The translations under genes were made by a program, and so were the position numbers. 64,000 nt of DNA from Candidatus Bathyarchaeota archaeon (GTDB lineage: Archaea > Thermoproteota > Bathyarchaeia > Bathyarchaeales > Bathycorpusculaceae): contig OY970340.1 of the NCBI GenBank assembly GCA_963717465.1, positions 1,792,001 through 1,856,000 of the forward strand. Direction: 5' to 3'. This document shows positions 15,753 through 44,440 of the stretch, piece by piece. The notes beneath the pieces were generated by a model that worked only from the letters and a program-made list of their open reading frames with translations, was not told the origin of the DNA and searched no databases. Position 1 is the stretch's first letter. Every line of letters starts with the position of its first letter.

Positions 15753-18700
15753 ATGAATAAAAAAAATCCAATAAATGCAATTTGCATAATATTGTTGGTT
15801 ATCTTAGCATTCTCAATGGCTACTAACACGGCCTTTGCATCAGTAGTTAACAATAATGCTCCAGTTGTGGCAAGGATTTGGACTGACAAGCCAGATTATC
15901 ATCCTGGGACTTTGGTGACTATTTATGGGTCCGGTTTCACTTCGAATGGTTACATTTTCTTAAGTGTGACCAAGGAGAAGGATGAGTCCGTTACGAACTT
16001 ACATGCAAGAGCGGATTTAAACGGGGATTTTGTGGCTCATTATCAAATTGACAAACAAGGAGCTCCTCTCTACAAGATAGTAGCCACAGACGGGAAAACA
16101 ACCGCAGAAACAGTATTCACAGACTCAATGACAATTTCAACGCAGCCAATTTCAGCCCACATCGATAGTGGGCAATCGGCGACTTTATTTAGTGTTGTGG
16201 CTGGTGGTAATAGTCCGTATACATGGCAATGGTATGACGATTACGGAGCTATCTCTGGCGCCTCTGGTTCAGGCGACACGGCATCTCTGACTGTTTCAAC
16301 AGCGGATACGGGCATCTACGTAGATTTCACTGACAATTCACAGGCGACTATTCAGTCTGACCCTGTGGGTGTTACAGTTAATCCAGCGTTGAGTGAGACT
16401 GCTTCTGCTTCGCCAGCTGCTGTGGACGATGGTCAACCCATCAGTTTAACTGTTACTCAGACTACAGGTACTGGGTCTTTCACGTATGAGTGGCAGTATA
16501 GTACTGATGGTTTTTCTTGGAGTGATATTCCGTTTGATTCTGGTGATCAGAATCCTTATTTTGATTCTGCGGGTTATGGTGGTTCAGCGTTGGAGTTTCA
16601 GGTTAACGTTACTGATGGTACTGGTGCTTCTCAGATTTTCAGCACCAGCTTTGTCACTGTGAATATTGCTTTGAGTGAGACTGCTTCTGTTTCGCCATCA
16701 ACGGTGGGCGCTGGTCAAATCATCAGTTTGTCGGTTACTCAGGGTACTGGTACTCCTCGTTTCACGTATGAGTGGCAGTATAGTACTGATGGTTCAACCT
16801 GGAATGATATTCCTTTTGGGTCTGGTGATCATAATCCCTCGTTTGATTCTATGGATTATGCGGGTTACACGTTATACTTCCAGGTTAACGTTACTGATGG
16901 TACTGGCGCTTCTCAAATTTTCAGTGCAGGCTCTGTTGCTGTGGGCAGCGTGCTTTCTCAGACTTCCGCTTCCGCCTTTCCTGGCGCTGTTGACGATGGT
17001 CAATCAATCAGTTTATCAGTAGACACCTACACCACTGTCAATAGTCCTTACACGTATGAATGGCAATACAGCACAGACGGCGTCAATTGGTACGACATTC
17101 CGTCTGGGTCTGCTGATCAGAATCCTTCTTTTGACTCTACGGGCTATGCGGGTTTCACGTTGGAGTTTCAGGTTAACGTTACTGATAGTACTGGCGCTTC
17201 TCAAATTTTCAGTGCAGGCTCCGTCACCGTGAATACCGCGGACACTGGAGGCTCCACCCCCCCGGATAGTGGGTTGAGTGAGACTGCTTCTGCTTCTCCT
17301 GATGTGGTGGATGTTGGTCAAAGCATCAGTTTGTCGGTTACTCAGACTACTGGTACTGGTCCTTTCACGTATGAGTGGCAATACAGCACTGATGGTTTTA
17401 CTTGGAATAATATTCCATCTTCTTCATTGCAGAATCCAAGTTTTGATACGTCTGATTTGACAGCTGGCACCTACTACTTCCAGGTTACAGTTACTGATAG
17501 TACTGAGGATTCTGCTACCTTCTATACGAGCTCTGTTACAGTGAATGCTGTGTTGAGTGAGACTGCTTCTGCTTCGCCATCAACGGTGGATGCTGGTCAA
17601 AGCATCAGTTTGTCTGTTACTCAAAACACCGGCACTAGTTCTTTCTCGTATGAGTGGCAGTACAGCACAGATGGCGCCACATGGCAGGACATTCCCTCTG
17701 CATCTGGTGATCAGAATCCCTCGTTTGATTCTACGGATTATGCGGGTTACACGTTATACTTCCAGGTTAACGTTACTGATGGTACTGGTGCTTCTCAAAC
17801 CTTCAGCACAAACTCTGTTACTGTTGGCAGCGCGTTTTCTTCAACTTCCGCTTCCCTCTCTCCTAGCACTGTTGACGATGGTCAAAGCATCAGTTTATCA
17901 GTTGACGCTCCTACCACTGGTACTGGTCCTTACACGTATGAATGGCAATACAGCACTGGCGCTAGCGGTGAATGGCAGGATATTCCGTTTTGGTCTGCTG
18001 ATCAGAATGCAACTTTTGATTCTACGGGTTATGCTGGTTCAACATTAGAGTTCCAGGTTATAGTTAATGATTCTGCGTCGGCTCAATTTACTGTGTATGC
18101 AGGTTCCGTCAATGTGAATAGTGCTTTGAGTGAGACTGCTTCTGCTTCGCCATCAACGGTGGATGCTGGTCAAAGCATCAGTTTGTCGGTTACTCAGACT
18201 ACTGGTACTGGTCCTTTCACGTATGAGTGGCAATACAGCACTGGTGGCAATAATTGGCAGAATATTCCGTCTGGGAATGCTTCTGCTGCTACATTTAACA
18301 GTACGGGTTATGGTGGCGGCGCTTTGAGTTTCCAAGTTATAGTGACTGACTCTGCAGGTGCGTCGATTACGGTTGGCGCTGGCTCTGTCACTGTTAACTA
18401 TGCTTTGAGCGAGACCGCTTCAGTTTCTCCACTTGAAGTTGATATTGGAGAAGACATCAGTTTGTCTGTTACGCAGACCACCGGCACTCCCACTTTCACG
18501 TATGACTGGCAATACAGCTACAATGGAGTTGATTGGTCTGATACTCCTCTCTTTTACTCGCAAAACCCTGGCTTCGGACTCGGCGAGGACTATTTCCTTG
18601 CGGGAACTTGTTACTTCCACGTTATAATCACCGATAATACTGGTGCGTCGATTACGGTTGGTGCTGGATCTGTCACAATAAATAACGCTTTATATGAGAC

Positions 18701-21700
18701 TGCTTCTGCCTCACCATCAACGGTCGATGTTGGCCAACCAATCAGTTTGTCCGTCACTGAAAACACGGGCACCGCGCCTTACACGTATGATTGGCAGGTT
18801 AGCTCTGACGGCGGCTACTCTTGGAGTAATGTTACATCGGCTACAGTGCAGAATCCGACCTTTGATACATCCAGTTTATTTGCGGGCACGTACGAGTTTC
18901 AAGTCATAATCACTGATGAAACAGGCGCTTCTGCTATTTTCTACACTGGCTCCGTCACCGTGAATAGCGCGTTGAGTGAGGTTGCTTCTGAATCACCAAC
19001 CACAGCAGAAGCTGGACAAACAATCAGCCTATCAGTCACCCAATCAACAGGCACTGCTCCCTACACTTACGAGTGGCAATACAGCACTAACAGTAGCGTG
19101 TCTTGGGCGGATATTCCATCCGATTCCAGTTATCAAAATCCCTCCTTTGACACCACAAACTATGGAGGCCAACTCTTAGAGTTCCAAGTCATTATCACAG
19201 ATGGCGCAGGCGCTTCTCAAACCTTTACCACAAGTACCGTCCTCATAAACCCTGCAACCAGTGGGTTAAGCGAGACTGCTTCAGTCTCTCAGAGCGTTGT
19301 GGACGCTGGACAAACTGTTAATTTAACGGTTACTCAGACAACAGGTACCGGTCCCTTCACTTACGAATGGCAAGTAAGCACTGACGAAACAAACTGGAAT
19401 AACATTCCATTGTACTCACTGCAGAACTCAAGTTTTGATACGTCTGATTTGGCTGCTGGCACCTACTTCTTCCAAGTTATCGTCACTGATTCCACTGGCG
19501 CAACTGGCACCTTTAGCGCTGGCTCGGTTACAGTAAATTCTGCCCTGAGTGAGGTTGCTTCTGAATCACCAACCACAGCAGAAGCTGGACAAACAATCAG
19601 CCTATCAGTCACCCAATCAACAGGCACTGCTCCCTACACTTACGAGTGGCAATACAGCACTAACAGTAGCGTGTCTTGGGCGGATATTCCATCCGACTTC
19701 AGTTATCAAAATCCCTCCTTTGACACCACAAACTATGGAGGCCAACTCTTAGAGTTCCAAGTCATTATCACAGATGGCGCAGGCGCTTCTCAAACCTTTA
19801 CCACAAGTACCGTCCTCATAAACCCTGCAACCAGTGGGTTAAGCGAGACTGCTTCAGTCTCTCAGAGCGTTGTGGACGCTGGACAAACTGTTAATTTAAC
19901 GGTTACTCAGACAACAGGTACCGGTCCCTTCACTTACGAATGGCAAGTAAGCACTGACGAAACAAACTGGAATAACATTCCATTGTACTCACTGCAGAAC
20001 TCAAGTTTTGATACGTCTGATTTGGCTGCTGGCACCTACTATTTCCAAGTGATTGTTAACGATTCTGCGGGTGCAACAGCCACCTTCAATGCTGGCTCTG
20101 TTACGGTGAATTCTGCTTTGAGTGAGTCTGCTTATGCATCACCCGGCATGGTGGATGTCGGTCAATCCATCAGTTTATCAGTTACTGATTCTACGGGTAC
20201 TGGTCCTTTCACGTATGAGTGGCAGTACAGCACTGACAACGGTGTAATTTGGAATAACATTCCGTCGTATTCGGAGCAGAGCCCGACTTTTGATACGTCA
20301 GGCCTAGGATGGGGTGTCTACAGCTTCCAAGTCATCATTACTGATCAAACAGATGCGTCACTCACGTTGAGCACGGACCAGGTGACAGTGAATCCCGCTG
20401 TTGAAGCAGCTATTACTCCAACCTCAATTACCATGGATGTTGGTCAATCTGAAATTTTCACTGCTTGGTCGATAGGCGGCGCTGACTGCATTGGTTTCCA
20501 ATGGTACGTGAACGGTGTACCCCAAAGCGGTCAGGTCGGATCTACATTTACCTTTACGGCAACTTCAACAGTCGCTCCGTCCATAACCGTAACAACAACC
20601 GATGATTTAGGTCAAACTTCACCTCAATCATCATCTCCAACTATCACAATAAACCCAGGTTTGAGTGAGATTGCTTCTGCATCGCCGAGTGTGGTGGATG
20701 TTGGTCAACCTGTCAGTTTATCAGTTACTGATTCTACGGGTACTGGTCCTTTCACGTATGAGTGGCAGTACAGCACTGACGGCATAAACTGGAATGATAT
20801 CCCATCCTCGTCATCACAGAACCCGAGCTTTGATGCGTCAGGTTTGACTGCTGGCACTTATTATTTCCAGGTGATTGTTAATGATTCTGCGGGTGCGTCT
20901 GCTACTTTCAGCACTGGCCAAGTAACGGTGAATGTTGATCCTTCAATTAATGTGCAACCCTCTGCAGCCACCATTGATAGTGGGCAGTCTATTACTTTGA
21001 CTTCAACTGTGCAGGATGGTACTGGTTCATACTCTTGGCAATGGTTCGACAGCAGCGGCATAATTACTGGTGCATCTGGTACAGGAGCAACTGCTTCACT
21101 GCCTGTTTCAGCCTCTGACACCGGCGTCTTACGTAGTCTTCACTGACACCGGAGTAGCACCAATGGTGAATGTTAATTCAACCAGTGTTGATGTCACAGT
21201 TGATGCTGCACCCACAATCATCACTCAGCCTTCTAGGGCGTATATCGAGAGTGGGCAGTCTATTACTTTGACTTCTACGGTTCAGGGTGGTTCTGGCTCG
21301 TTCTCTTGGGCTTGTTATGATCATACTGGTTCTCTTGTCGGATCTGGCTCGGGGACAACTGCCTCGCAGGTAATCACAACTTCTGACTTTTATGGCTACT
21401 ACTTCGTCTTCACTGACACCGGTGTAAGTGCTGGTGCGACTCCAGCGTCAGCGGCGACTGTTACTTCAAACGGTGCTCCCGTTGTTGTTCTTTCTGCGCC
21501 CTCCGTTTACATTCAGCCTTCTTCTGTAACGATTGATAGTGGGCAGTCTATTACTTTGTCTTCTTCCGTGGAGGGTGGTTCTGGCGATTTCTCTTGGCAA
21601 TGGTATGATCAGACTGGCGCTATAGTGGGCGCTTATGGCTCGGGTACCACGGCTTCCTACACGTTTAGTTCTTTGAGTAGTGATGATGGTGTCTACGTGG

Positions 21701-24700
21701 TGTTCACTGATGTTTACGTTTCTTCTGGTGCTACTCCATCGTCGTTGGCGAGTGTTTCTTCTAGTAGTGTTGATGTTACAGTTGATTCTGCACCCTTAGT
21801 TTCCACTTCGCTTAATAGTGCGACGATTGACAGTGGTCAGTCTATTACTTTGACTTCTACGGTGTCTGGTGGTTCTGGCTCGTTCTCTTGGGCTTGTTAT
21901 GATCATACTGGTTCTCTTGTCGGATCTGGCACGGGTGCTTTTGCTTCGCAGTCGGTCTCAAGTTCTGATGCAGGCTACTACTTCGTGTTCACTGACACGG
22001 GTGTTTCTTCTGATGCGGCTCCAGCGGTAACTGCGTCTTCAAACAGTATAGCCGTTTATGTTAATGCGGCGCCCTACGTGAGTATTCCGCCTTCTTCGGC
22101 GACGATTTACAGTGGGCAATCTGCAAATTTGACTTCAGTTGTATCTGGTGGCAGCGGCGATTTCAACTGGCAATGGTATGACAACAGCGGTGCTATATCG
22201 GGTGCTTATGGTTCGGGTTCAACGGCTTTCTACTTGGTTTCAAGTGGTGACACTGGAGTCTACGTGGTGTTTACTGACACTGGCTTAACTTCCGGTGCGA
22301 CTCCGGATTCAACGGCAACTGCTTCTTCTAATAGTGTTGATGTTTCGATTGGTACTGCGCCTTCGATTAGCATTCAGCCTTCTTCTGCAGTTATTGACAG
22401 TGGGCAATCTATTACTTTGACTTCAACTGTGCAGGATGGTAGCGGCTCATTCTCTTGGCAATGGTATGATCAGACTGGTGCATTATCTGACGCTTACGGT
22501 ACGGGCACAACGGCCACTTACGTGTTTGGCTCTTCGGGCAACGGCACCGGAATCTATGTAGTCTTCACTGACACTGGCGTAACTCCGGCGGTGAATGTGG
22601 CTTCAAACAGTGTTAATGTTACTGTTGATGTTGCGCCTTCAATCATCTCTCAGCCCTCTTCCGCAACGATCGACAGTGGACAGTCGATAACTTTAACTTC
22701 AACGGTGTCTGGTGGAACTGGAACTTTCACTTGGACATGCTATACTCACACGGGCACTCTAGTTGGTTCTGGCTCAGGGCAGTCTGCTTCTCAGGTAGTC
22801 TCAACTGCTGACTCGGGTTATTACTTTGCGTTCACTGACACGGGTGTATCTTCCGGCGCGACCCCCACGGCAACCGCTCAGTCAAGCGGTGCTCAAGTTA
22901 TAGTTGACTCTGCACCCCAAATTAGCTCTCAGCCCTCTTCCGCAACCATTGACAGTGGACAGTCGATAACTTTAACTTCAACCGTGACAGGTGGCACCGG
23001 CTCATTCACTTGGAAATGTTACACCCACACAGGTGCTCAAGTTGGCTCCGGCTCGGGAACGTCTGCCTCGCAGATAGTCTCAACTGCTGACGCGGGTTAT
23101 TACTTTGTGTTCACTGACACAGGCGTATCTTCCGGCGCAACTCCCACGGCAACCGCTCAGTCAAACAGTGCTCAGGCTAGGGAGGATTCTGCTCCGTCAG
23201 TCAGCTCTCAGCCTTCTTCTGCGACTATTGACAGCGGCCAGTCTATTACTTTGACTTCTACGGTTCAGGGTGGTACTGGATCATTCACTTGGCAGTGGTA
23301 TAATCATGCGGGTACTGCTGTTGGTAGTGGTTCTTCTGGTACGACTGCTTCGCTTTCTGTTTCATCTGCTGATTCGGGTTACTATGTTGTGTTCACTGAT
23401 TCTGGAACTGGTTCTGCCACTCCAACCAAGACTGCTACTTCAAGCAGTGTTCAAGTTACCGTTGATTCTGCTCCGTCAGTCAGCTCTCAGCCTTCTTCTG
23501 CGACTATTGACAGCGGCCAGTCTATTACTTTGACTTCTACGGTTCAGGGTGGTACTGGATCATTCACTTGGAAATGTTACACCCACACAGGTGCTCAAGT
23601 TGGCTCCGGCTCGGGAACGTCTGCCTCGCAGATAGTCTCAACTGCTGACGCGGGTTATTACTTTGTGTTCACTGACACAGGCGTATCTTCCGGCGCAACT
23701 CCCACGGCAACCGCTCAGTCAAACAGTGCTCAGGTTGCTGTTGATTCTGCTCCTTCAATTGGTGCACAACCTGTTTCTGCTACCTTGGACAGCGGCCAAT
23801 CAATAACGTTGTCGTCTACGGTTACGAGAGGCACTGGTTCATTCACGTGGCAATGGTACGATCACAATGGCGTTGTAACGGGCGCCTCTGGAACTGGCGT
23901 ATCCGCTTCTTATGTCGTTTCAAGCGGTGACACGGGAATTTACGTGGTCTTCACTGATGCTGGTGTTAGTGCAGGTGCTTCTGGATCAAAGACTGCAACT
24001 TCAAGCACTGTTGATGTTACAATGAATGTCGCTCTAACAGTTTCTGTCAGTCCAGCTGGTCCAGTGACAATGAACATTGGACAAACTGAGACTTTTACAG
24101 CCAATCCATCTGGAGGCTCCGATAGTTACTCAACGTACACTTGGTATGTGAATGGCATCTCACAGAGCGGATATGATACATCGATGTTTAATTATACAGC
24201 CAATTCGTTAGGTTCTCTATCCATAACTGCTACTGTCACCGATAGTTTAGGAGTGACTTCATCCCAATCATCGACTTGCGATGTTACAGTCAACGATGTT
24301 GCTCCAACTATCACTGCCCCGGTCAATGTAGTAGCGTTCGCTAACAGCGCAGCAGGAGCCAGTGATGTCTCGTTAGGTTCTCCAACTGTTGGCAGCATCG
24401 CTTATTCAACTGCAGACTTATCAGTTACCAACAACGCCACCGCCATATTCCCAGTAGGCACAGTGACAGTTCTCTGGACTGTAACGGACCCAAGTGGACT
24501 AACTGCAACAGCCCTTCAAACCGTTATAATAAACCCATACTCGCCAACATCTTCATCTTCGCCGACACCAACACTTACCCCAACACCGACCCCTACTACA
24601 ACCCCAACGCAATACCAAACTTACACTGTGACCGCAACGGCACCCAACGGCACGGTCGTCAACGTCACAATCTATGGAGACATCAACAGCAGCCAAATCT

Positions 24701-25120
24701 CAAACATGACGATCTCAACATGTCAATCTGCAGCAACAACGGCTGTCTCTTTCACAATAACTGGTCAAAGCGGAACACAAAGCTTCCTTAACATGACAAT
24801 TTCAAAGAACGACGTATTCTATGGAACAGTGCCGGCAGTGAGCATCGACGGCAAACAAGCTGTTAACCAAGGTTACGTGCAAGACGCAAACAACTATTAT
24901 GTGTGGTTCTCAACAAGCTCCGGTACAAACCAGGTCTCAATACTATTTGCAAGGGCGACTAGGCAGCACAACTCCAGCATCCGCCAATGAGCCAGCTTTG
25001 GACTCATTTGCCCAATATCTATCCGTAGCAGCAGCATTAATAATCTTGGCAGCTATAATTGTAGGACTATTCGTGAAAAGAAGAAAAGACAGACAAAGCG
25101 GCATCACGATCTTAAACTAA
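15753..25120 (+). CDS. Giant (~3100 aa) cell-surface protein with tandem Ig/PKD-like repeats, HYR-like domain, PT linker and C-terminal TM anchor; frameshifts near 21129 and ~24950
   Basis: Signal peptide and AGGAG SD. Repeats TYEWQYSTDG and QPSSATIDSGQSITLTSTV. ORFs 15753-21146, 21070-24990 and 24899-25120 join; an extra T breaks the repeat consensus DTGVYVVFTD. Confidence 0.88.
18973..20040 (+). repeat. Near-identical tandem duplication with 573-bp period inside the surface-protein gene
   Basis: Sequence from 18973 recurs at 19546 almost unchanged for ~495 bp. Confidence 0.92.
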
Positions 25121-25824: not shown

Positions 25825-28071
25825 ATGTCTGAAATCAAGAATGTGATTTGTGCAGTCTGTGACAAAGGATGCCCGCTTAAGGTCAAAGTAAACAACAATA
25901 AAATGGTTAGCGCCCAGGGACTTATGGATTCCAAAGTTATATGCATGAAACCTCAATTTGCAAATGATTACATCAATCATCCGCAAAGATTATTGTATCC
26001 ACTGAAGAACGTAGGCTCAAGAAGAGGAGAGCAAAAATGGAAACGTATCACTTGGGAACAAGCATTAGATGAAATTGCATTTAAGCTGGAAAAAATTATA
26101 AAAAAATATGGACCGGAATCATTCGCCGTTTCTACATTGCCAGTTAATGCAGGGGTAGATCAGGGAATGGTTCGAAGATTAATGAATCTGCTTGGTAGTC
26201 CGAACTGGATGAGCGGTTTATCGATGTGTATGGGTAATACTGCGCAGGTTCACAGAACTACTTTAGGCTGGTTCCCAATGGGTGATTATACACATGCAAA
26301 ATGCATTGTATATATTGGTCATAATCCACATGAACAAAACTGGGTGATGGAATACTATCAGCTATTGCAGGCTAAGGAACGAGGTGCAAAACTCATTGTT
26401 CTTGATCCACGCAAGTCACAGTGTGCAAATCTTGCTGACCTCTATTTACCCCTCCGTTATGGCACAGATGCCGCGATGCTCTTAGGTTGGCTGAATATAA
26501 TTATTAACGAAGAGCTTTATGACAAAAAGTTTGTTAAAAAATGGACAATTGGCTTTGACGAACTTAAGGAAAGAGTGCAGGACTATCCATTGGAAAAGGT
26601 TGCCAAAATAACCGACTGCAAGGCTGAGGATATCAAAAAAGCAGCCATGATGTATGCGACACAAGGACCTTCAATCATCCCTTGGAGTGTTAATTTTGAC
26701 ATGAATGTAAACAGTACATCCCTTATCCGCTGTCATAGTATTCTGGCTGCCATCTGTGGATATCTAAACAAAAGCGAAATGCTGGGCTATCTAAATCCTG
26801 ATGTTGTGACAATTTCAGAAGTAGAAATGCATGAAGCATTGCCTGACGAAAAGAAAAAGATACAGTTGGGAACCAAGACTTATCCATTATTTACTTATGA
26901 AGGCTTGAAAAAACTGAATGAACCCTCTAAAAGAGTGTATGGACGGGAGTACTGCAATGTTATATCCAGTTTCATGGCGCACCCACCTACGGTATTTAAG
27001 GCAATGCGAACTGGATCGCCATATGCTGTTAAGGCATTTTTTATCTTGGGCGGAAATCCACTGATGGGATATGCCAATCAGCAAGGTGTTTTTGAGGCAA
27101 TGAAAAATCAGGAACTGATTGTGAGCTTTGATCACCTATTAAATCCGTCAGCTCAATTGGCTGATTATGTCTTGCCTGGGGATGCTTGGCTGGAAAGACC
27201 ATCCTTATTTCCGCTATTCGATTTAGCGCCAATAGCCATTCCTTTTCAGCAAGCCCTTGTGTCTCCTGGAGAGTGCAAAGACTTGTATTTCTTCATTAAG
27301 GGTTTAGCGGATCGGTTGGGGTTAAAGGAATATTTTCCATGGAATAATCTTGTTGAGTTTATGGAATACAGAATTCAAAAATCAGGACTGAAATGGGAAG
27401 CATATGAAGAAACGCCGTTGAAGGAGTTAATGACTATATCTCAATTGTTTTCGCCATTTATGATGAAAAAGCCCATTACGAATAAAGCGATTTCAAAGGT
27501 CGGATTCATGCTGTCGTTGCCTTTTACAAAAGGTGTAGGGGTTGCCACTCCTTCGGGAAAAGTTGAGTTGAAAAGTAGTATTCTCGAAGGGCTTGGATAT
27601 GATTCGTTGCCTTATTATAAAGAACCACAACAAACCCCGATTTCAAATCCAAAGCTGGCTAAAGAGTACCCGTTGACACTGTTCATAGGATTGAGAGAAG
27701 GACCATACTATAATACCAATCTGCGTCATGTTGAAGGTTTAAGAAAGCAGTTGCCTAATCCCCTTGCTCTGATTCACCCGTCGGATGCTGCAAAATATGA
27801 TATTCAAGCAGGCGATTGGATTTGGGTTGAAACCACTCATGGCAAGGTTAAAATGATGGCGCAGCTTGATGAAGTTCAACCGGCTGGAACAATTCGCGTC
27901 CCACATGGATGGTGGTTGCCTGAGTTGGAACCTGGAGAGAAAACCGGATTTTCAGGTGCCATGTGGCATAATGATGGGTTGGTCATCAGTGATGATGATT
28001 GGAATCTTGACCCTGAACAGGGATTGCCAAATCTGAGAGGCGGATTACTGGCCAAGGTTTCGAAAATATAA
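25825..28071 (+). CDS. Acetylene-hydratase-like W/Mo-bisPGD [4Fe-4S] enzyme
   Basis: C9xxC12-D13-xxC16...C40MK Fe-S motif; GSPNW...MCMGNTA metal ligand; LRYGTDAA; DDDWNLDPEQGLPNLRGG C-terminus. Confidence 0.92.
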   Translation: MSEIKNVICAVCDKGCPLKVKVNNNKMVSAQGLMDSKVICMKPQFANDYINHPQRLLYPLKNVGSRRGEQKWKRITWEQALDEIAFKLEKIIKKYGPESFAVSTLPVNAGVDQGMVRRLMNLLGSPNWMSGLSMCMGNTAQVHRTTLGWFPMGDYTHAKCIVYIGHNPHEQNWVMEYYQLLQAKERGAKLIVLDPRKSQCANLADLYLPLRYGTDAAMLLGWLNIIINEELYDKKFVKKWTIGFDELKERVQDYPLEKVAKITDCKAEDIKKAAMMYATQGPSIIPWSVNFDMNVNSTSLIRCHSILAAICGYLNKSEMLGYLNPDVVTISEVEMHEALPDEKKKIQLGTKTYPLFTYEGLKKLNEPSKRVYGREYCNVISSFMAHPPTVFKAMRTGSPYAVKAFFILGGNPLMGYANQQGVFEAMKNQELIVSFDHLLNPSAQLADYVLPGDAWLERPSLFPLFDLAPIAIPFQQALVSPGECKDLYFFIKGLADRLGLKEYFPWNNLVEFMEYRIQKSGLKWEAYEETPLKELMTISQLFSPFMMKKPITNKAISKVGFMLSLPFTKGVGVATPSGKVELKSSILEGLGYDSLPYYKEPQQTPISNPKLAKEYPLTLFIGLREGPYYNTNLRHVEGLRKQLPNPLALIHPSDAAKYDIQAGDWIWVETTHGKVKMMAQLDEVQPAGTIRVPHGWWLPELEPGEKTGFSGAMWHNDGLVISDDDWNLDPEQGLPNLRGGLLAKVSKI

Positions 28072-28667: not shown

Positions 28668-29498
28668 TTGAAAAAACTAGCTTCAATTCTCTTCACTAGA
28701 ATTCCATTGGAGGGTAACACTAAAACAAGGCTCACATTAAAAGAAGAAGGTGGGATTCTAACGTCTGAAGAAGCTGCAACATTCTATAAGGCTTCAATGA
28801 TGGATGTAATTGAAGTCTTTATAAAAGTTATAAAATCATTTAATGAAGAAAAACCCAACTTGGAAAACAAGTTATTCATTGCTTATGAACCTAAAGAAAA
28901 AGAAGAAAATCTAAAAAGAATACTTGAAAAATCGGATCTGCAAGGTTTATCAAATGATTCGATAGAGCTTTTTGCAACGAGCGGCAACAATTTCAATGAG
29001 CGTATTGCTATGTCTTTTGAATATGTTTTCAAAAAGGGTTATGAATCGGCAGTTATGGTTGGAGGAGACCACCCGCTTATTCAGCCACGCGTTATTAAGG
29101 AAGCATTTGAGCATCTTGAAAGATTGGAGAGACAATACCATAGAGGAGCAATCGTTGCTGGGCCATGCATAGCAGCAGGTCTTTATTTAATTGCACAAAC
29201 AAGCAACGTGCCCATTGACTTCAGAGATGTCTTCTATAATACTCAGGGTATAACATCCTTGGAAGTTTATACCAAAAAAGCCATTGATACACAAGTTCCT
29301 TTTGCAATCCTCGAATTGGTTACCGACGTTGATGTGCCATCTGATTTAGCTGCTTTAGTAGTGAATCTTAGATCTATGGATTACGCTTCTGAATTTCAAC
29401 CAAGCCTCAATCTGCCACGGCATACACTATGGTTCATAAAAAAACTCAACCTTAGTATAATTACCCCTCCAAACCAAAGAGATATAACGCTTCATTAG
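28668..29498 (+). CDS. DUF2064 / TIGR04282-like CofC/MobA-fold transferase
   Basis: FTRIPLEGNTKTRL, MVGGDHP, GPCIAAGLYLI and DVDVPSDL motifs. Confidence 0.8.
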   Translation: MKKLASILFTRIPLEGNTKTRLTLKEEGGILTSEEAATFYKASMMDVIEVFIKVIKSFNEEKPNLENKLFIAYEPKEKEENLKRILEKSDLQGLSNDSIELFATSGNNFNERIAMSFEYVFKKGYESAVMVGGDHPLIQPRVIKEAFEHLERLERQYHRGAIVAGPCIAAGLYLIAQTSNVPIDFRDVFYNTQGITSLEVYTKKAIDTQVPFAILELVTDVDVPSDLAALVVNLRSMDYASEFQPSLNLPRHTLWFIKKLNLSIITPPNQRDITLH

Positions 29499-29886: not shown

Positions 29887-29974
29887 TAATATTTTTTGGA
29901 TATTTTTTCTTTGAGTTCTATTGCGCGCTGGCATTTCATAACTCTCAAAATTCTGCATAACGCAAGTGGTTTGC

Positions 29975-30006
29975 GGTAGGATTCCCAACCACCAACCATT
30001 ATATCT
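29975..30006 (+). promoter_or_regulatory. Palindromic operator plus TATA box
   Basis: GGTAGGATTCCCAACC, 8-nt spacer, TTATATCT; same spacing as the 28604 copy. Confidence 0.7.
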
Positions 30007-30089
30007 GATTGCCTGAATAGACCCCTTTGTAGGAGATAAGAACCTATTAAAAATATAAAAGGTGAAAAAAAACGAAAGACACTACTGAA

Positions 30090-32366
30090 ATGACTGAGCA
30101 AAAGAAGTTCTTATGTGCATTCTGTGGAGTTCAGTGTGAAATCCTTGCTACTGTTACAAAAGATGGATTCCTGACTGCTGTCGAGCCTCGGCCCGATCAT
30201 CCAATTAGCCCCGGAGCATATTGTCGAAGGTGGACTTATTATACAGAATACCTATACAAATCAGACCGCCTCAAATATCCTATGAAGAGAGTTGGAAAAC
30301 GAGGCGAAGGCAAGTGGCAGATAATTTCATGGGAACAAGCATTTGACGAAATAGGTGCTAGACTCAGGGAGATAATTGCGAAATACGGCTCAGAAGCAAT
30401 ATACGTTTGGCACGGAACATCCCGTGGAAACCCATATGCAGGAGATACAAAGTTCGTTCGCGCAATCGGAAGCCCAGCTATCGGAGCTCCTGGAGCTGAA
30501 ATCTGATTTGCGCCCAACGTCCGTAGTTTAGGGATAACTTACGGCGTTGGACAATGCCTATCTACAGTGATACCTGGCGTAACGAAATCCATGTATAGCA
30601 CGTTCAATCATACTGAATCAAGTGAATTTATCTGGCCGATGTATCTTCGCGCAATTGAAGCGGGAATGAAGCTTATAACACCAGACCCTAGATTCACTGA
30701 GGTTGTTCGTAATTCTGCCCTCTGGCTTCAGATAAGACCAGGTACGGATGCTGCACTCAACTTGGGCATAGCACATGTGCTCATCGAGGAAAATCTCTAT
30801 GACAAAGAGTTCGTGGAGAAATGGTGTTATGGTTTCGAGCAATTGAAGGAACGCGTCAAAAACTACACACCTGAGAAAGTTGAGGAGATCACTTGGGTTC
30901 CAGCGGACAAAATCAGAGAGGCAGCAAGGACACTGGCAAACAACAAACCACAGTCGGTTCCATTACTAAACTATGGACATACTGAGCCATTCTCAAATAG
31001 CTGGGGAATCAATCGTTCGCGGCACATTCTACCCGCGCTGCTCGGAACCGTTGACGAAGAAGCTGGCGAAACGATGCCAAGCAAACCAAAATGGCGCACT
31101 CTCGAAGATTTCGACGAGCCTGACATCATGCCCATGGGACAAAGAAAGAAATTCCTGAATACTTGGAAAAATCACAAATTCGGAATGGTAGGCTGGGAAG
31201 TTCAAGAATTAATTGGTCAAGCCCAAACCAGAGGATACTGGAAAGGAAACCCATATCTTGGATGCACAGAAGTACATGGATACTTAATGACTCCTTGGAA
31301 TCTAGTAACTCGGTCTGTTCTCGAAGGCAAACCCTACCCTATAAAAGCTTTCATAGGACATCAAGGTTCTGCTCTCAGATGCGGACCCAACCAGAAACAG
31401 GCTCTTGAAGCACTGAAACAAATCGAATTCTACGTTAACATGGACACTTCAGTCATGACTCCCGATGCGATGATGGCAGACTATGTATTACCAGCTGCAA
31501 GTACAGCTGAAAGACCCATGGTCGACCTTATGATTAGTAATGCTTCAGAAATGATCTTTAACGCAAGTGCAGACGCGGTTATTCCGAAGAAAATACCAGG
31601 TCTGTGGGATCACAAGGAAGACTATGAAATGTGGCGGGAATTTACAAAGGCAATCAAGGGTCAAAAATGGATAGATGAGCACTGGCCTCAAAAGAACTAT
31701 TACGAACATTATGAGTGGGTATTCAAACCGGCAGGTATGACGCTTAAAGAAGTCGCTGAGAAGACCCCTATCCTTCCAATATTGGAACCAAGAAGATACG
31801 CGTTGCCAGACTCAGAAACTGGTGAGCCAAGAGGATTCGGAACACCCTCTGGAAAGGTCGAACTATACTCAACAATAGCTGAGAAAGTCGGATGCGACCC
31901 AATGGGTAACCATACAGATCCAGCAGCAAGTCCTTACAGCACGCCAGATATCGCAGCGGAATATCCATTTATTCTGACAACTGGAGCTAGACATGGAGAA
32001 ATGTTCCACGGCGAATTATTCGAGATTAGTATGGCGCGTAAAATAAGACCAGACCCAATTGTACAGATTCATCCAATGGCTGCTAGACAGCTTGGCATAG
32101 CAGAGCACGACTGGGTTTGGATTGAGACACCAACAGGAAAAATCAGGATGAGAGCTAAACACTACGAAGGTCTTGATCCGAAAGTAATTGCATGTGAACA
32201 CGGCTGGTGGTTCCCAGAGGAATCAGGTGAACTTCCTAATCTATTCGGCGTCTCCAGATCAAACGCAAGCGTTCTTGTAGATGATGACCCATTGCATTGT
32301 GACCCAGCAACATCAGTATGGGCAAATAAAGCGATGCTTTGCAAGGTATACAAAGCACCATTTTAG
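30090..32366 (+). CDS. Mo/W-bisPGD oxidoreductase (acetylene hydratase/catechol dehydroxylase-like clade), probable selenoprotein with Sec139, 758 aa
   Basis: ORFs 30090-30506 and 30567-32366 are in the same frame, separated only by TGA 30504-30506 in GSPAIGAPGAEI-U-FAPN, which aligns with the Cys ligand of the neighbouring paralog. Confidence 0.85.
30514..30550 (+). promoter_or_regulatory. Bacterial-type SECIS-like hairpin in the coding sequence just 3' of the UGA
   Basis: CCAACG/CGTTGG, CCGTA/TACGG, GTT/AAC, bulged U, A-U, GGGA loop; 24 nt between UGA and loop. Confidence 0.7.
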
Positions 32367-32457
32367 ACAAAGAAGGCCCAATATCCCCCATTTTCTTTTG
32401 TTTCAAATAAAGAATGATTCCGTAAAAAGAATTAGGTGTAACGGTAGGTGATAAGAC

Positions 32458-32799
32458 ATGTCAGAAAAAGAAAAAAAAGCAGAAGAAGTTGCAAATGAAT
32501 TCAGTGCCAAACTTGCTAAACAAACTGAAAAACTCAAAGGCTGGGGCAAAGCAGTCCAGATCGACTTCACTGACGTAGGTGTTTCGTACTGGTATAAATT
32601 TGGCATGGATGGCAAAGTTGAAAAAAGAGAGAAAGCTGACAAGAGAAAAGAAGCCGAAGGAGTAATCAAGGCAACAACAGACATATTTAGAGATTTGATG
32701 AATAATAAAATTAACCCGATGACTGCAATTATGAAAGGCACTATAAAAGTTGAAGGAAGCGCGAATGCCATAATGAAAGTCGGCAAAACTCTAAGTTAG
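32458..32799 (+). CDS. SCP2 sterol/lipid-binding domain protein
   Basis: DIFRDLMNNKINPMTAIMKGTIKVEGS is typical of SCP2 domains; AGGTGA SD. Confidence 0.85.
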   Translation: MSEKEKKAEEVANEFSAKLAKQTEKLKGWGKAVQIDFTDVGVSYWYKFGMDGKVEKREKADKRKEAEGVIKATTDIFRDLMNNKINPMTAIMKGTIKVEGSANAIMKVGKTLS

Positions 32800-33122
32800 C
32801 TTGAAACAACATCACTTTTTTTTCTCATTTGAATAACTCACACTCTCGTCTTAATTGCATAAAGCATTGCAGAACAAGTAAATGGACGTAACTTTGAAAC
32901 CCCGGGCAAAAAGATAATTTCCTTTGGCATTCTTATTTTTGTCGCATCCTTAGGCAATAGATTTCTCTCCTAAAAACCAAATTGCTTTTCATCAGTGAAT
33001 GCATTCTGCTAGAAAATTAAAGGTCTCATCAAACAAGCGTGTGCGATAGAAAAACCGATTACTGCTTATATTTCTGATCAACTTGCAGTCTAACTTTCAT
33101 CAACATTTGAATCAATTTGAGA

Positions 33123-33583: not shown

Positions 33584-34411
33584 ATGATTTGGGAAGCTGT
33601 GCAAGATGAGGATGTCGATAATCTAATTAAAGCTGGACTTACATCGGGTCAAGCTAAGGTATACCTTGCACTAGTTCTATTGCAGAAAGCAACAATTTCA
33701 GAAATATCGAAAAAGGCGAAAGTAGATAGGGCTGACACGTATCGCTTAGTAACCGAGCTTGAAGAAATAGGATTAGTTGAAAGAATAATAGCCAAACCGA
33801 ATTTTTTAGTTGCTGTTCCTATAAAAGATGGGCTATCAACTTTGCTCGATAACAAAAAAAAGGAATACACCGAAATGAGCAATGCTGTGAGCGAATTACA
33901 GCAAAAGTTCAAAGCAATTGTGGATAAAAATAGAGATGGGAAAATAAGCCAATATATTCTGATTCCTCAAGGAAACCAAATTATTCGCAGGTTAAGAGAA
34001 ATAGTTGAGAAATGTCAGAAAAATATATGTTGTACTGTTACATGGAAAGAGTTCTCGAAGAATAACGCGCTTCATTTAGTTCTGGCTCTAGATATTGAGA
34101 GGGCAATGAAGCGAGGGATAAAGTTTCAATTTTTGGTTAATGAAAATAGTAAGTCATCATGGCCAAAGAGTACTAAAAGGTTAGCAAAAAATCCAAACTT
34201 TGAGATCCGAACCTTGTCTGCTGTGCCTTTCATGTTTGCAATGTGCGATAGTAGCGAAATCTATATACCTCAAACTCAAGGGGGACTTCAAGAATATCCT
34301 GCGCTTTGGTCAAATAACCCTATAATCGCAGGGCTTGCTAAAAGCTACTTTGATAAACTTTGGAATGAGGGTACCCCTGCTGATTTACGTTCTAAAACTG
34401 GCTCCAAATGA
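33584..34411 (+). CDS. TrmB-family transcriptional regulator
   Basis: GLTSGQAKVYLAL...YRLVTELEEIGLV wHTH; C-terminal YFDKLW effector domain. Confidence 0.9.
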   Translation: MIWEAVQDEDVDNLIKAGLTSGQAKVYLALVLLQKATISEISKKAKVDRADTYRLVTELEEIGLVERIIAKPNFLVAVPIKDGLSTLLDNKKKEYTEMSNAVSELQQKFKAIVDKNRDGKISQYILIPQGNQIIRRLREIVEKCQKNICCTVTWKEFSKNNALHLVLALDIERAMKRGIKFQFLVNENSKSSWPKSTKRLAKNPNFEIRTLSAVPFMFAMCDSSEIYIPQTQGGLQEYPALWSNNPIIAGLAKSYFDKLWNEGTPADLRSKTGSK

Positions 34412-41981: not shown

Positions 41982-42601
41982 CAAAATGCCTTTTTATCAA
42001 ATTGGGTTACAAAGTTTTTAGAATTAGCTTCTTTTACATCTTTCAAAAGCTCAAAAAACAAAATAAGAATCGTAAAAAAATATTCTTGTGGTCATCTTTC
42101 AAGCACTTGTTAAGTGCCCACAGGTATTAAGGGTATCCACGAGTTTTTTAGTGTGCCCGCAGTTAGTGCAATAAACTGAAACAGCTGTCCGTTCTTATTC
42201 ACTAAAAGGGTTTACGTGTTACCGCATTTCTCACAATCATATTGGCGGTGTCTAATCGAAATGATTTTTCTGGGTCATTAAAAAAAGAACATGACTGTTT
42301 TGTTTAAAAGCTTTGTTCTCCATCACCGATTAGAAGACTGGTGAAAAATCAGACAAACTCCATTTGGTGTCGTGTTTGGAAACAATGAAATGCCTTGGCT
42401 AGTATGTTAAGGTATTTTCTACCAAAAGACCGTTAGACCATTCAGTTGGAAATTAGCAAGTAGAGTTTTCATAAAGCTAATGTTATTTGATTTGAAAGAA
42501 CATAAAACCTCGGATTACTCCCAAATTATAACCTCCTTATTATTCTGTTTAATTGTCGTTAAAAAAAGCTTATAATGTGCCTGAAGTACATACGCTCAAG
42601 T

Positions 42602-44440
42602 ATGAAGCTCGCTCGATTGGAAATATCAAATTATCGCAGCATTAAGCAATTAGATATGGATTTTGGTGCCTCTACTATAATAGTCGGCAAGAATAACACA
42701 GGCAAATCAAATATCCTGAGAGCTATTGATATTGTTTTAGGAGAGCGCTTTTTTAAGCCGACTAAAAACGATTTTTTCGATGGTGATGAAACTCGAACTA
42801 TACAGATAATTTTGCATTTTGATGATTTCACTGATGAAGAAATTAACGAAATTACATCAAAAATAAAATACCCTTGCTATGTTGAACATAATTATTACAG
42901 GGCAATCGATTACACCGGGTTTCTGTATGCTACACGCTCGGCTCGTCTTGAAATAGAAATGTCCAATGTTGGACTTGAAAAGAAACTTTACCTTGGAGGC
43001 GTTTACTACAAGTACCTTTCTACTGAGCTTAAGAATGCCATAATCACTTCAGTACATATTCCATCAGTTCGTGACCATACGCAGATTCTAAAGACAACGG
43101 ATTACTCGTTTTTGGGAAAATTGCTTGCAAAGCTTTATGATGGCGCAGACGCAACAAAGAAAACTGAGCTTAATCAGAAACTAAGCGAAGGCAATGATGT
43201 TTGTAATGATATTTTCTTGAAATACCAGAATAGACTTAATGAGATTAGTTCAGCCATTATTAGTCACAACGGGGTTAAGTTTTCCTTTTTGCCAAGTAAC
43301 CCTCGCGAAAGTTATAGAAAACTTGAGATTCTTCTCGATGACGGGATAGAAACTGGATTGGACTTTAAAGGCTCAGGTATTCAAAGCGTTATCATAATTT
43401 CATTATTCAAATTGTATAGCGAAGTCAAGGCAGGACAAGCACTAATTCTAATCGAAGAACCAGAGCTGTTTCTGCATCCTCACGCCAACCGCCACATGGC
43501 AAGCGTTTTAAAGGACTTTTGTACTTCTGAAGGAGTCCAGCTTATAATCACTACTCACTCTCCCCAATACTTGTTAGACAGAGACATTTCCGAGATAGTA
43601 TTAGTAAGGAAAGTTGGCAAAGAAACTTCAGTCAAGAGAGCAACTGGTGCTATTGATGAAGTGAAACTCAAAAAAGAACTTTCTGAATCTAACCTTGAAT
43701 TGTTCTTTTCCGAAAAAGTGGTTCTTGTTGAAGGTCAAAGCGATAAAATAATGTTACAGGCTTTCGCCAAATCCATTGACGACAAATTTGATTTTGATGC
43801 AAAGAACATTGGTGTTATCGAAACGGGTAGCAAAGCTAACTTAGACATTTTCATCGATTTATTGGAAGCCTTTGAGGTTCCTTGGTTGGCTGTTGTTGAT
43901 AAAGACTTGCTTGATGACAAAGGAACTTTGGGACGAATGAATACACATTTCAATTTAGGCATTGTCGACACCGATTCAAGTGCTCAGAAATCAGATACGC
44001 TAAAAGCTAAGGGTATAAATGTTCTACAGTTTGGAGAGATAGAAAACTATTACAACAAAGATTGGCTGTATAATGTTTTGTATGACTTCATCGACGAAAC
44101 GAACCTTCCTCAAAAAACCGATATCAAGACTTTGATACAAAACATGACTAGCTCTGACGATTCAGCCTCGCTGAAGCGACAATTAGGAACTAGCGGCTGG
44201 TTAACCCTCGATATCGATGATGTAGTAAACAGAGTAATTAATTGTAAGGTTGGCTTAATTCCTGTTAACATGGAAGCGCAAAGACTCGGAAATAAGCTGC
44301 AAGATGAAATATTTAGTTGCTTCCAACTAACCAAACCAAAAATTGCTTTGAAAATTAAGAAGTATGTCAACGTGAATAGTTTACCTGATAACAAGAAAGA
44401 GGAGCTAACCGAATTATTATCTAGAGTTTTTGCTACATAA
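42602..44440 (+). CDS. OLD-family ATP-dependent nuclease (ABC ATPase + TOPRIM)
   Basis: GKNNTGKS, GSGIQS, IEEPELFLHP, TTHSP; TOPRIM LVEGQSD and VDKD. Confidence 0.9.
   Translation: MKLARLEISNYRSIKQLDMDFGASTIIVGKNNTGKSNILRAIDIVLGERFFKPTKNDFFDGDETRTIQIILHFDDFTDEEINEITSKIKYPCYVEHNYYRAIDYTGFLYATRSARLEIEMSNVGLEKKLYLGGVYYKYLSTELKNAIITSVHIPSVRDHTQILKTTDYSFLGKLLAKLYDGADATKKTELNQKLSEGNDVCNDIFLKYQNRLNEISSAIISHNGVKFSFLPSNPRESYRKLEILLDDGIETGLDFKGSGIQSVIIISLFKLYSEVKAGQALILIEEPELFLHPHANRHMASVLKDFCTSEGVQLIITTHSPQYLLDRDISEIVLVRKVGKETSVKRATGAIDEVKLKKELSESNLELFFSEKVVLVEGQSDKIMLQAFAKSIDDKFDFDAKNIGVIETGSKANLDIFIDLLEAFEVPWLAVVDKDLLDDKGTLGRMNTHFNLGIVDTDSSAQKSDTLKAKGINVLQFGEIENYYNKDWLYNVLYDFIDETNLPQKTDIKTLIQNMTSSDDSASLKRQLGTSGWLTLDIDDVVNRVINCKVGLIPVNMEAQRLGNKLQDEIFSCFQLTKPKIALKIKKYVNVNSLPDNKKEELTELLSRVFAT

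Follow-up and report, generated by a model that had tools for sequence, protein, structure and literature searches.

The locus described here raises the question whether a UGA codon placed exactly where an enzyme would bind its metal is a stop or a codon for selenocysteine (Sec) and, if the latter, which signal marks it. The gene lies at positions 30090-32366 (+) of the window, by which we mean the whole stretch of 64,000 nucleotides (nt) from Candidatus Bathyarchaeota archaeon (assembly GCA_963717465.1, contig OY970340.1, positions 1,792,001 to 1,856,000), numbered here from its first letter. Translation gave one frame of 758 sense codons followed by a TAG stop (32364-32366); the sole internal stop is TGA 30504-30506, codon 139, in the context GSPAIGAPGAEI-TGA-FAPNVRSLGITYG. 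The list of open reading frames (ORFs) cuts the gene in two in the same frame, 30090-30506 (138 amino acids (aa)) and 30567-32366 (599 aa). A first-pass annotation, made from the letters of the DNA and its ORFs, had joined the two pieces, interrupted by this TGA only, into a hidden selenoprotein of 758 residues with Sec at residue 139. Our analysis upholds the single frame, and supports the Sec139 enzyme through the alignment of its metal ligand, the Sec machinery of the genome and eleven TGA paralogues. As a lone case, however, the gene did not stand, being the most divergent of eleven copies, and the annotation had passed over what we find the more surprising feature, a hairpin directly after the UGA. 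We consider it very probable that UGA139 is read as Sec. The whole is best explained, and we think likely so, by a Sec139 enzyme of the acetylene-hydratase branch, which would be decoded in the archaeal way with the hairpin inside the ORF as cis signal.

The read-through protein carries the Pfam domains Molybdop_Fe4S4, Molybdopterin and Molydop_binding. Its best solved relative is acetylene hydratase, 2e7z (E 3.2e-105, residues 5-755, 31% identity). In the AlphaFold model the read-through protein forms a single compact fold (mean predicted local distance difference test score (pLDDT) 88.3, with no segment <50; predicted template modelling (TM) score, pTM, 0.92), and its best structural match is again 2e7z (TM 0.89/0.93, root-mean-square deviation 2.7 Å), followed by polysulfide reductase (TM 0.78). 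Residue 139 stands opposite the Cys of MYMCIGN in 2e7z, which by the chain offset is Cys141, the tungsten ligand of acetylene hydratase, strictly conserved in the subfamily (PMC12096430; papers are cited by such numbers for the parts of their text available to us). BLASTP against the paralogue at 25825-28071 (30% identity, E 2e-94) matched residue 139, by way of a one-residue gap, to the Cys in GLSMCMGN, just as had been drawn from the letters alone. Comparison of this column in homologues, suggested at that stage as a check, returned Cys almost throughout. It is Cys in 36/36 rows of an alignment made of the two window proteins and 34 of 120 listed homologues (C standing for the U of the query). 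The 80 best loci of species-representative genomes have 55 TGC, 24 TGT and one GGC as ligand codon (79/80 Cys); the 80 best from metagenomes have 50 TGC and 27 TGT (77/80 Cys), with one TAT, one gap and one locus where the site is not covered. The TGA form was absent from both sets, these protein-guided scans taking the best 80 loci each where further loci exist. All 56 family-invariant residues are present in the window protein. Four Cys codons for a [4Fe-4S] cluster lie within 30114-30224 (+): C9, C12 and C16 (CAFCGVQC) and C45, of which C12, C16 and C45 are invariant among homologues and C9 nearly so, with Gly13 at the place of acetylene hydratase Asp13. We propose that the gene encodes a cytoplasmic 758-residue enzyme with an N-terminal [4Fe-4S] cluster, belonging to the acetylene-hydratase branch of the molybdenum- or tungsten-bis(pyranopterin guanine dinucleotide) (Mo/W-bisPGD; dimethyl sulfoxide reductase) superfamily, in which Sec139 would replace the Cys that ligates tungsten (or molybdenum).

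A six-frame search of the organism's own genome with the read-through protein revealed eleven loci with one TGA each, and in the alignment the TGA stands at the homologous codon in 11/11 paralogues. Given these paralogues, a UGA at the metal-ligand codon is more than chance. Eight copies are full length (758-779 aa) and three are broken (C1:130853/132774, C1:616675/617864 and C1:2797295/2798703); the latter span 130853-133094, 616675-618925 and 2797295-2799536 on C1 and have splits or extra stops. The other TGA copies are 42-49% identical to the window copy, and the seven full-length ones among them are 73-78% identical to each other and 42-45% to it. In a maximum-likelihood tree the eight full-length copies form one clade (Shimodaira-Hasegawa-like approximate likelihood ratio test (SH-aLRT) 96), and its sister group is a pair of metagenome Cys proteins (P0004, P0005; support 100). 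The window copy branches first within the Sec clade, on a long branch (1.12), a placement obtained by a quick search. With the window gene as the earliest-branching member of an eleven-copy Sec clade, one Cys-to-Sec switch followed by duplication would be the simplest history. A sequence search found the family in none of the other species of the genus (absent in 119/119) and in none of 16 genomes of the same order, one congener (G019) giving an 86-residue match (E 7.6e-8). Why only this species of the 120 in the genus has it, and in eleven Sec copies, is an evolutionary puzzle that touches on gene transfer, on duplication and on what advantage Sec offers over Cys. In a second public assembly (contigs of 75-201 kb), six proteins of 560-607 aa correspond to the C-terminal part and share 65-91% identity with one paralogue; three of the six cluster at at least 90% with this genome's own pieces; no partner from that assembly was seen among the listed homologues of the window copy. 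Such C-terminal pieces are the expected product of a TGA common to independent assemblies, and, together with the homologous TGA in all eleven copies, they rule out both an error of sequencing and an isolated nonsense mutation.

The window lies within a single contig of 3,053,889 bp, and the Sec machinery, for which the first-pass annotation had proposed a search, was found complete on the same contig: two tRNA-Sec genes, SepSecS, SelD and two PSTK-aSelB genes. Both tRNA-Sec genes have a UCA anticodon (71.8 and 61.8 bits with Rfam; ARAGORN also calls tRNA-SeC). In their consensus structure the acceptor stem has nine pairs and the T stem four; the eighth acceptor pair, mismatched in both genes, is taken to be U6:U67. 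SepSecS (489 bits) adjoins the first tRNA-Sec gene. SelD (240 bits; G000:C1:951672-952682), the only one over the cut-off in the genome, itself contains a TGA, within VHG-U-SCK. Two ORFs, of 732 and 730 aa, join PSTK (KTI12 domain) to aSelB (GTP_EFTU, domain 2, aSelB_III). The second fusion gene (G000:C1:2827363-2829555, -) shares 54% identity with the first; its GTPase motifs are altered (GHCKHGKT, EMPGN, SKID), and it adjoins the second tRNA-Sec gene (C1:2829638-2829725). Full-length relatives of the fusion are frequent in public data, and of those listed with an organism name 5/7 are from Bathyarchaeota or Bathyarchaeia, one from Nitrososphaerota and one from Nanoarchaeia, in support of the original guess that the host is a bathyarchaeon. 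An Asgard origin was also weighed and rejected, since the fusion and these names speak for Bathyarchaeia. Across the genus SepSecS passes the cut-off in 10/120 genomes, this one included. The doubt voiced at first over Sec use in Bathyarchaeia falls away: Mukai et al. (Front Genet 2022; PMC8762117) described a Sec system with a PSTK-aSelB fusion in Bathyarchaeota and Archaeoglobi, including tRNA-Sec with U6:U67 in a wetland lineage, and a review likewise covers the archaeal Sec system in Bathyarchaeota (PMC9499178). Decoding of UGA139 would then follow the archaeal/eukaryal-type route, through tRNA-Sec with the 9/4 acceptor/T fold, PSTK fused to aSelB, SepSecS and SelD.

The hairpin after the UGA occupies 30514-30550 (+). 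It starts 7 nt after the UGA, with arms 30514-30530 and 30535-30550 and the apical loop GGGA at 30531-30534. Its folding energy is -20 kcal/mol (z -2.22; 2/200 dinucleotide shuffles are as stable), and the loop lies 24 nt from the UGA. The model of the bacterial Sec insertion sequence (bSECIS) has an apical loop of 3-9 nt, a G in its first two positions, a distance of 16-37 nt from the UGA and a minimum free energy <= -7.5 (PMC13188914), and the window hairpin falls within all four of these constraints. A hairpin is present in 11/11 TGA paralogues, with a spacer of 6 nt between UGA and stem, or of 7 nt in the window copy. Across an ungapped alignment of the eleven sites the arms pair in 89% of cells versus 83.9% in shuffles (0/500 reach this value), and five pairs have changed on both sides (1/500 shuffles), the rows being paralogues of one genome, so that these counts exaggerate their independence. 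Pairing falls to 23-47% when the partner is shifted by 1-3 columns. The 55 nt following the TGA in 1334 in-frame TGA candidates genome-wide have a mean folding energy of -7.6 (standard deviation (sd) 3.7), and the eleven copies range from -16.0 to -22.2. In 80 Cys homologues the same stretch after the Cys codon has a mean z of -0.41 (sd 1.12; 7/80 below -2); z is +1.32 in the Cys paralogue at 25825 and -0.70 in a Cys homologue from Bathyarchaeia (L055). The exact DNA pattern of the subfamily hairpin had 0 matches in metagenome contigs.

Codon choice in the stem points the same way. In this genome of 40% G+C, codons that are rare are nevertheless fixed there: Pro CCC in 11/11 copies (usage 0.15), Thr ACG in 10/10 (0.15), Gly GGC in 11/11 (0.34) and Val GTG in 10/11 (0.16). 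The lone exception for Val is the window copy, where Val is GTT and its partner is the A of AAC, which takes the place of ACG, a compensatory change. The window copy, which branches deepest in the Sec clade, diverges most and sits next to a Cys-type acetylene-hydratase-like gene, has kept its hairpin by compensation. We judge it reasonably probable that the hairpin is the Sec recoding signal. The cis signal would most likely be this in-ORF element, 6-7 nt after the UGA, which is the bacterial placement and not that of the archaeal element in the 3' untranslated region (3'UTR).

Reviews place archaeal Sec insertion sequence (SECIS) elements in UTRs (PMC13188914, PMC11227280). The AT-rich 3' intergenic stretch of the window gene (32367-32457, +) has no stable structure, and an archaeal-type SECIS was not detected in it: it folds at -7.7 kcal/mol (z +1.91), and 199/200 shuffles fold at least as well. 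The 3'UTRs of the full-length paralogues range from z -0.73 to +1.72 (8/8). Over 29900-33000 no SECIS family in Rfam matched at E <= 10, the only hit being a chance snoRNA match (E 2.6); the archaeal type, a 3'UTR element with a GAA_A bulge, was not found by folding and Rfam, no dedicated archaeal SECIS model having been run. The 5' regions of full-length copies have z below -2 in 2/8, and no common element was seen in them.

Hairpins behind UGAs are not confined to this enzyme family. The genome encodes an HdrA-MvhD fusion selenoprotein of 854 aa (G000:C1:1519920-1522484, -) with two UGAs, in DCSI-U-IEGP and FMCNW-U-GYAG, and the two strongest hairpins of the 1334 candidates follow these codons (-25.8 and -22.8 kcal/mol). 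Orthologues with both TGAs were found in 5/5 of the Sec-using congeners examined (85-86% identity in four intact matches). The hairpin stems are identical in all five, and loops and flanking synonymous sites vary. Within the 16 codons after the UGAs, 23/30 usable codon positions are identical among five species versus 312/615 elsewhere (one-sided Fisher p 0.004, a rough value only, as the species are related). Two further in-frame TGAs in one frame, at G000:C1:2823437 and 2823617 (-), are followed by hairpins of -19.6 and -16.7 kcal/mol.

Several findings, in addition to the relatedness of the aligned rows, the long branch of the window copy and the quick tree search, weigh against our reading. 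Bacterial SelB binds bSECIS through its C-terminal winged-helix domains, and a domain search found these in neither PSTK-aSelB ORF. Folding found no comparable hairpin at +6 after the UGA of SelD, a site that is TGC in 5/5 Sec-using congeners; a local hairpin is thus not seen at every UGA. The stems overlap the codons of the conserved residues P142 and Y151-G152-V153-G154, and part of their conservation could therefore be protein constraint. The z values of the Sec copies, -1.3 to -3.45, are moderate taken singly. When all 55-nt segments of the gene are ordered by energy, those of the hairpin take places four to eight; the lowest (-22.7) begins 45 nt upstream of the UGA, and one further segment also stands above them.

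Some of these points favour the best surviving alternative, in which UGA139 is Sec but the hairpin is no SECIS: it would be a by-product of the encoded peptide or a local enhancer, and the element that recruits aSelB would lie in a UTR or act in trans. Some eukaryotic selenoprotein mRNAs, that of SEPN1 for example, carry a 'Sec redefinition element' a few nt after the UGA. The missing winged-helix domains of aSelB, the SelD UGA without a +6 hairpin and the overlap of the stems with conserved residues all fit this alternative, as does the UTR position of published archaeal SECIS elements. We nevertheless regard it as unlikely. The 3'UTRs of 8/8 full-length copies have no excess structure, and Rfam has no SECIS match. 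Rare synonymous stem codons are fixed, with a compensatory change in the window copy; Cys homologues have no hairpin at the same gene position; and the unrelated HdrA and MvhD genes have hairpins of their own at the same spacing.

Much less probable is a UGA recoded, but not (or not only) as Sec, for example if crosstalk between Sep-tRNA-Sec and SepCysS loaded tRNA-Sec with Cys. Crosstalk of this kind in archaea has been discussed, and the PSTK-aSelB fusion proposed as a means of preventing it (PMC8762117); all close homologues, moreover, work with Cys. A full Sec synthesis set is, however, encoded here, eleven UGA copies with hairpins would be a costly way of encoding Cys, and the Cys-type paralogue uses a plain TGT. 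That the TGA is a real stop, in a pseudogene or in a split gene whose products are an Fe-S piece of 138 aa and another of 599 aa, or an assembly error, can be practically discounted: gene callers do make the same split (P0003), three of the eleven paralogues are broken elsewhere, and the TGA letters are those of the assembly, contigs of two public DNA runs (covering 0.15 and 0.07 of the stretch) skipping 30420-30543 and with it the site, but the TGA recurs at the same codon in 11/11 copies only 42-49% identical to the window copy, the same split calls appear in the second assembly, the 20 codons from the TGA to the next start are conserved and in frame, and a split would remove the metal ligand from a protein that keeps 56/56 family-invariant residues.

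With UGA139 as Sec and the hairpin as its candidate signal, the neighbouring genes bear on what the enzyme may do. The Cys-type paralogue (P0002; 25825-28071, +; 748 aa) lies 2 kb upstream of the window gene. Both Asp13 (CAVCDKGC) and the ligand Cys (SMCMGN; codon TGT) are present; it matches 2e7z with E 2.8e-262 (875 bits) and is probably a true acetylene hydratase. Between the two paralogues is a gene for a DUF2064/TIGR04282-like nucleotide-sugar-transferase fold (28668-29498, +; PF09837 E 1.9e-13; TIGR04282 77 bits versus a cut-off of 134). Downstream, after 91 nt, follows an SCP2-domain protein of 113 aa (32458-32799, +; PF02036 E 1.1e-10), which may carry a hydrophobic ligand, and then a TrmB-family winged-helix regulator (33584-34411, +). 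A winged-helix regulator of ~200 aa also adjoins most other Sec copies, near which FadH/OYE-type Fe-S flavoenzymes, corrinoid proteins and MttB- and MtmB-like methyltransferases recur. We suggest that the paralogues may be substrate-inducible tungsten (or molybdenum) enzymes for small unsaturated or hydrophobic organic compounds, each with its own winged-helix regulator, and that Sec may tune their metal centre. The tungstate/molybdate-binding protein WtpA is encoded over the cut-off (309.7 bits; G000:C1:820294-821154, +), consistent with tungsten use. Elsewhere in the window are a tandem pair of very large ORFs (1797 and 1306 aa; 15753-24990, +) rich in immunoglobulin-like and PKD domains, probably surface proteins, and an OLD-family nuclease (AAA_15 and TOPRIM; 42575-44440, +), a candidate defence gene.

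Sec ligands in Mo/W-bisPGD enzymes (Fdh, Fwd) and a Bathyarchaeota Sec system with PSTK-aSelB are already known. To our knowledge, the only characterised relative of the present enzyme type, acetylene hydratase, does non-redox chemistry; Sec ligation of tungsten or molybdenum would, if our reading is true, extend beyond the formate and formylmethanofuran dehydrogenases. A Sec form of the acetylene-hydratase branch was not found in the parts available to us of the literature searched (including PMC10100899, PMC11220754 and PMC12016498), nor was a recoding hairpin inside an archaeal gene; in the available part of PMC13188914 acetylene does not occur and molybdopterin occurs only as MoeB. The active site would offer a natural Se-W centre for comparison with synthetic models (PMC11220754). 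There are practical consequences too: eleven enzymes of a single genome are each split by standard gene calling, and archaeal selenoprotein searches limited to 3'UTR SECIS would miss them. How archaeal aSelB finds its UGA is described as unresolved in a review (PMC9499178). The hairpin is a short, portable element that makes recognition of the UGA by aSelB testable, for example in the Methanococcus reporter system (PMC9622424), and it would, if confirmed, represent a novel archaeal mode of Sec insertion, with PSTK-aSelB or another partner reading a local signal. On the wider claim, that this is a third independent Sec-using Mo/W-bisPGD branch with new chemistry and with in-ORF-hairpin decoding shared with Sec-using congeners, we hold the balance to be even.

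Among known enzymes, acetylene hydratase of Pelobacter (Syntrophotalea) acetylenicus (2e7z) is the closest. It has the cluster motif Cys9/12/16/46, and its Asp13 is highly conserved, subfamily-specific and essential for activity (PMC12096430). The window enzyme has the Mo/W-bisPGD fold and the corresponding N-terminal cluster (C9, C12, C16, C45), and shares with acetylene hydratase the four Fe-S cysteines, the position of the metal ligand and the appearance of a monomer-type cytoplasmic protein. It differs in having UGA/Sec at Cys141 and, as the first-pass annotation had seen in CAFCGVQC, in lacking Asp13, which alignment to 2e7z replaces by Gly13 (Ser in the seven other full-length copies). 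Three further residues differ: Trp179 of the acetylene pocket aligns to Glu176, which does not vary among the eight Sec copies, while Phe140 stands opposite Ile142 and Thr110 opposite Ile113, both Ile residues belonging, as we assume, to that pocket as well. Gly13 in place of Asp13, with Glu176 at Trp179, indicates that the window enzyme is probably not a canonical acetylene hydratase. Its substrate may instead be another small, probably unsaturated or hydrophobic organic compound, and the enzyme a hydratase, hydroxylase or reductase; the evidence for this consists of missing residues and gene neighbours, which counts against pressing the assignment.

No curated NCBIfam model passes its cut-off with the window protein. 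Some sources name the homologues after the polysulfide/thiosulfate reductases PsrA/PhsA, but the PhsA model NF012032 gives 236 bits versus a cut-off of 694, and the N-terminus MTEQKKFLCAFC shows no twin-arginine signal by inspection, so that neither score nor export agrees with that name. The Sec-containing formate dehydrogenases and FwdB (FdhH 1aa6, FdhA) are alike in superfamily, in Sec on a Mo/W-bisPGD centre and in the N-terminal [4Fe-4S] domain. In Table 1 of the 2026 review PMC13188914, the source of their U-H-x-P motif as well, no Mo/W-bisPGD selenoproteins were found other than Fdh and formylmethanofuran dehydrogenase B. In contrast, the window enzyme belongs to another branch and reads U-F-A-P (U-x-G-P in the other copies), without the catalytic His. 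A reading as formate dehydrogenase was rejected, as no His follows Sec and the Fdh-alpha scores are below cut-off (TIGR01591, 257.8 versus 666; TIGR01553, 102.8 versus 814).

In its decoding signal, the gene resembles the bSECIS genes of E. coli, fdhF and fdnG: an in-ORF hairpin follows the UGA, with a 4-nt loop beginning with GG, a spacing of 24 nt and -20 kcal/mol. Unlike them, it belongs to an archaeal host with PSTK, SepSecS and aSelB, whose elongation factor is without the winged-helix domains that bind bSECIS. By term searches in the available parts of these texts, SECIS is not mentioned in PMC8762117 or PMC5424206, 'selenoprotein' occurs once in PMC8762117, and 'Bathyarchae' is absent from PMC13188914 and PMC11227280. 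With the Bathyarchaeota/Archaeoglobi system of PMC8762117 the present genome shares the fusion ORF, the mismatched eighth acceptor pair and fusion relatives named as Bathyarchaeota or Bathyarchaeia; what it has in addition is an acetylene-hydratase-like Sec family and hairpins inside the ORFs.

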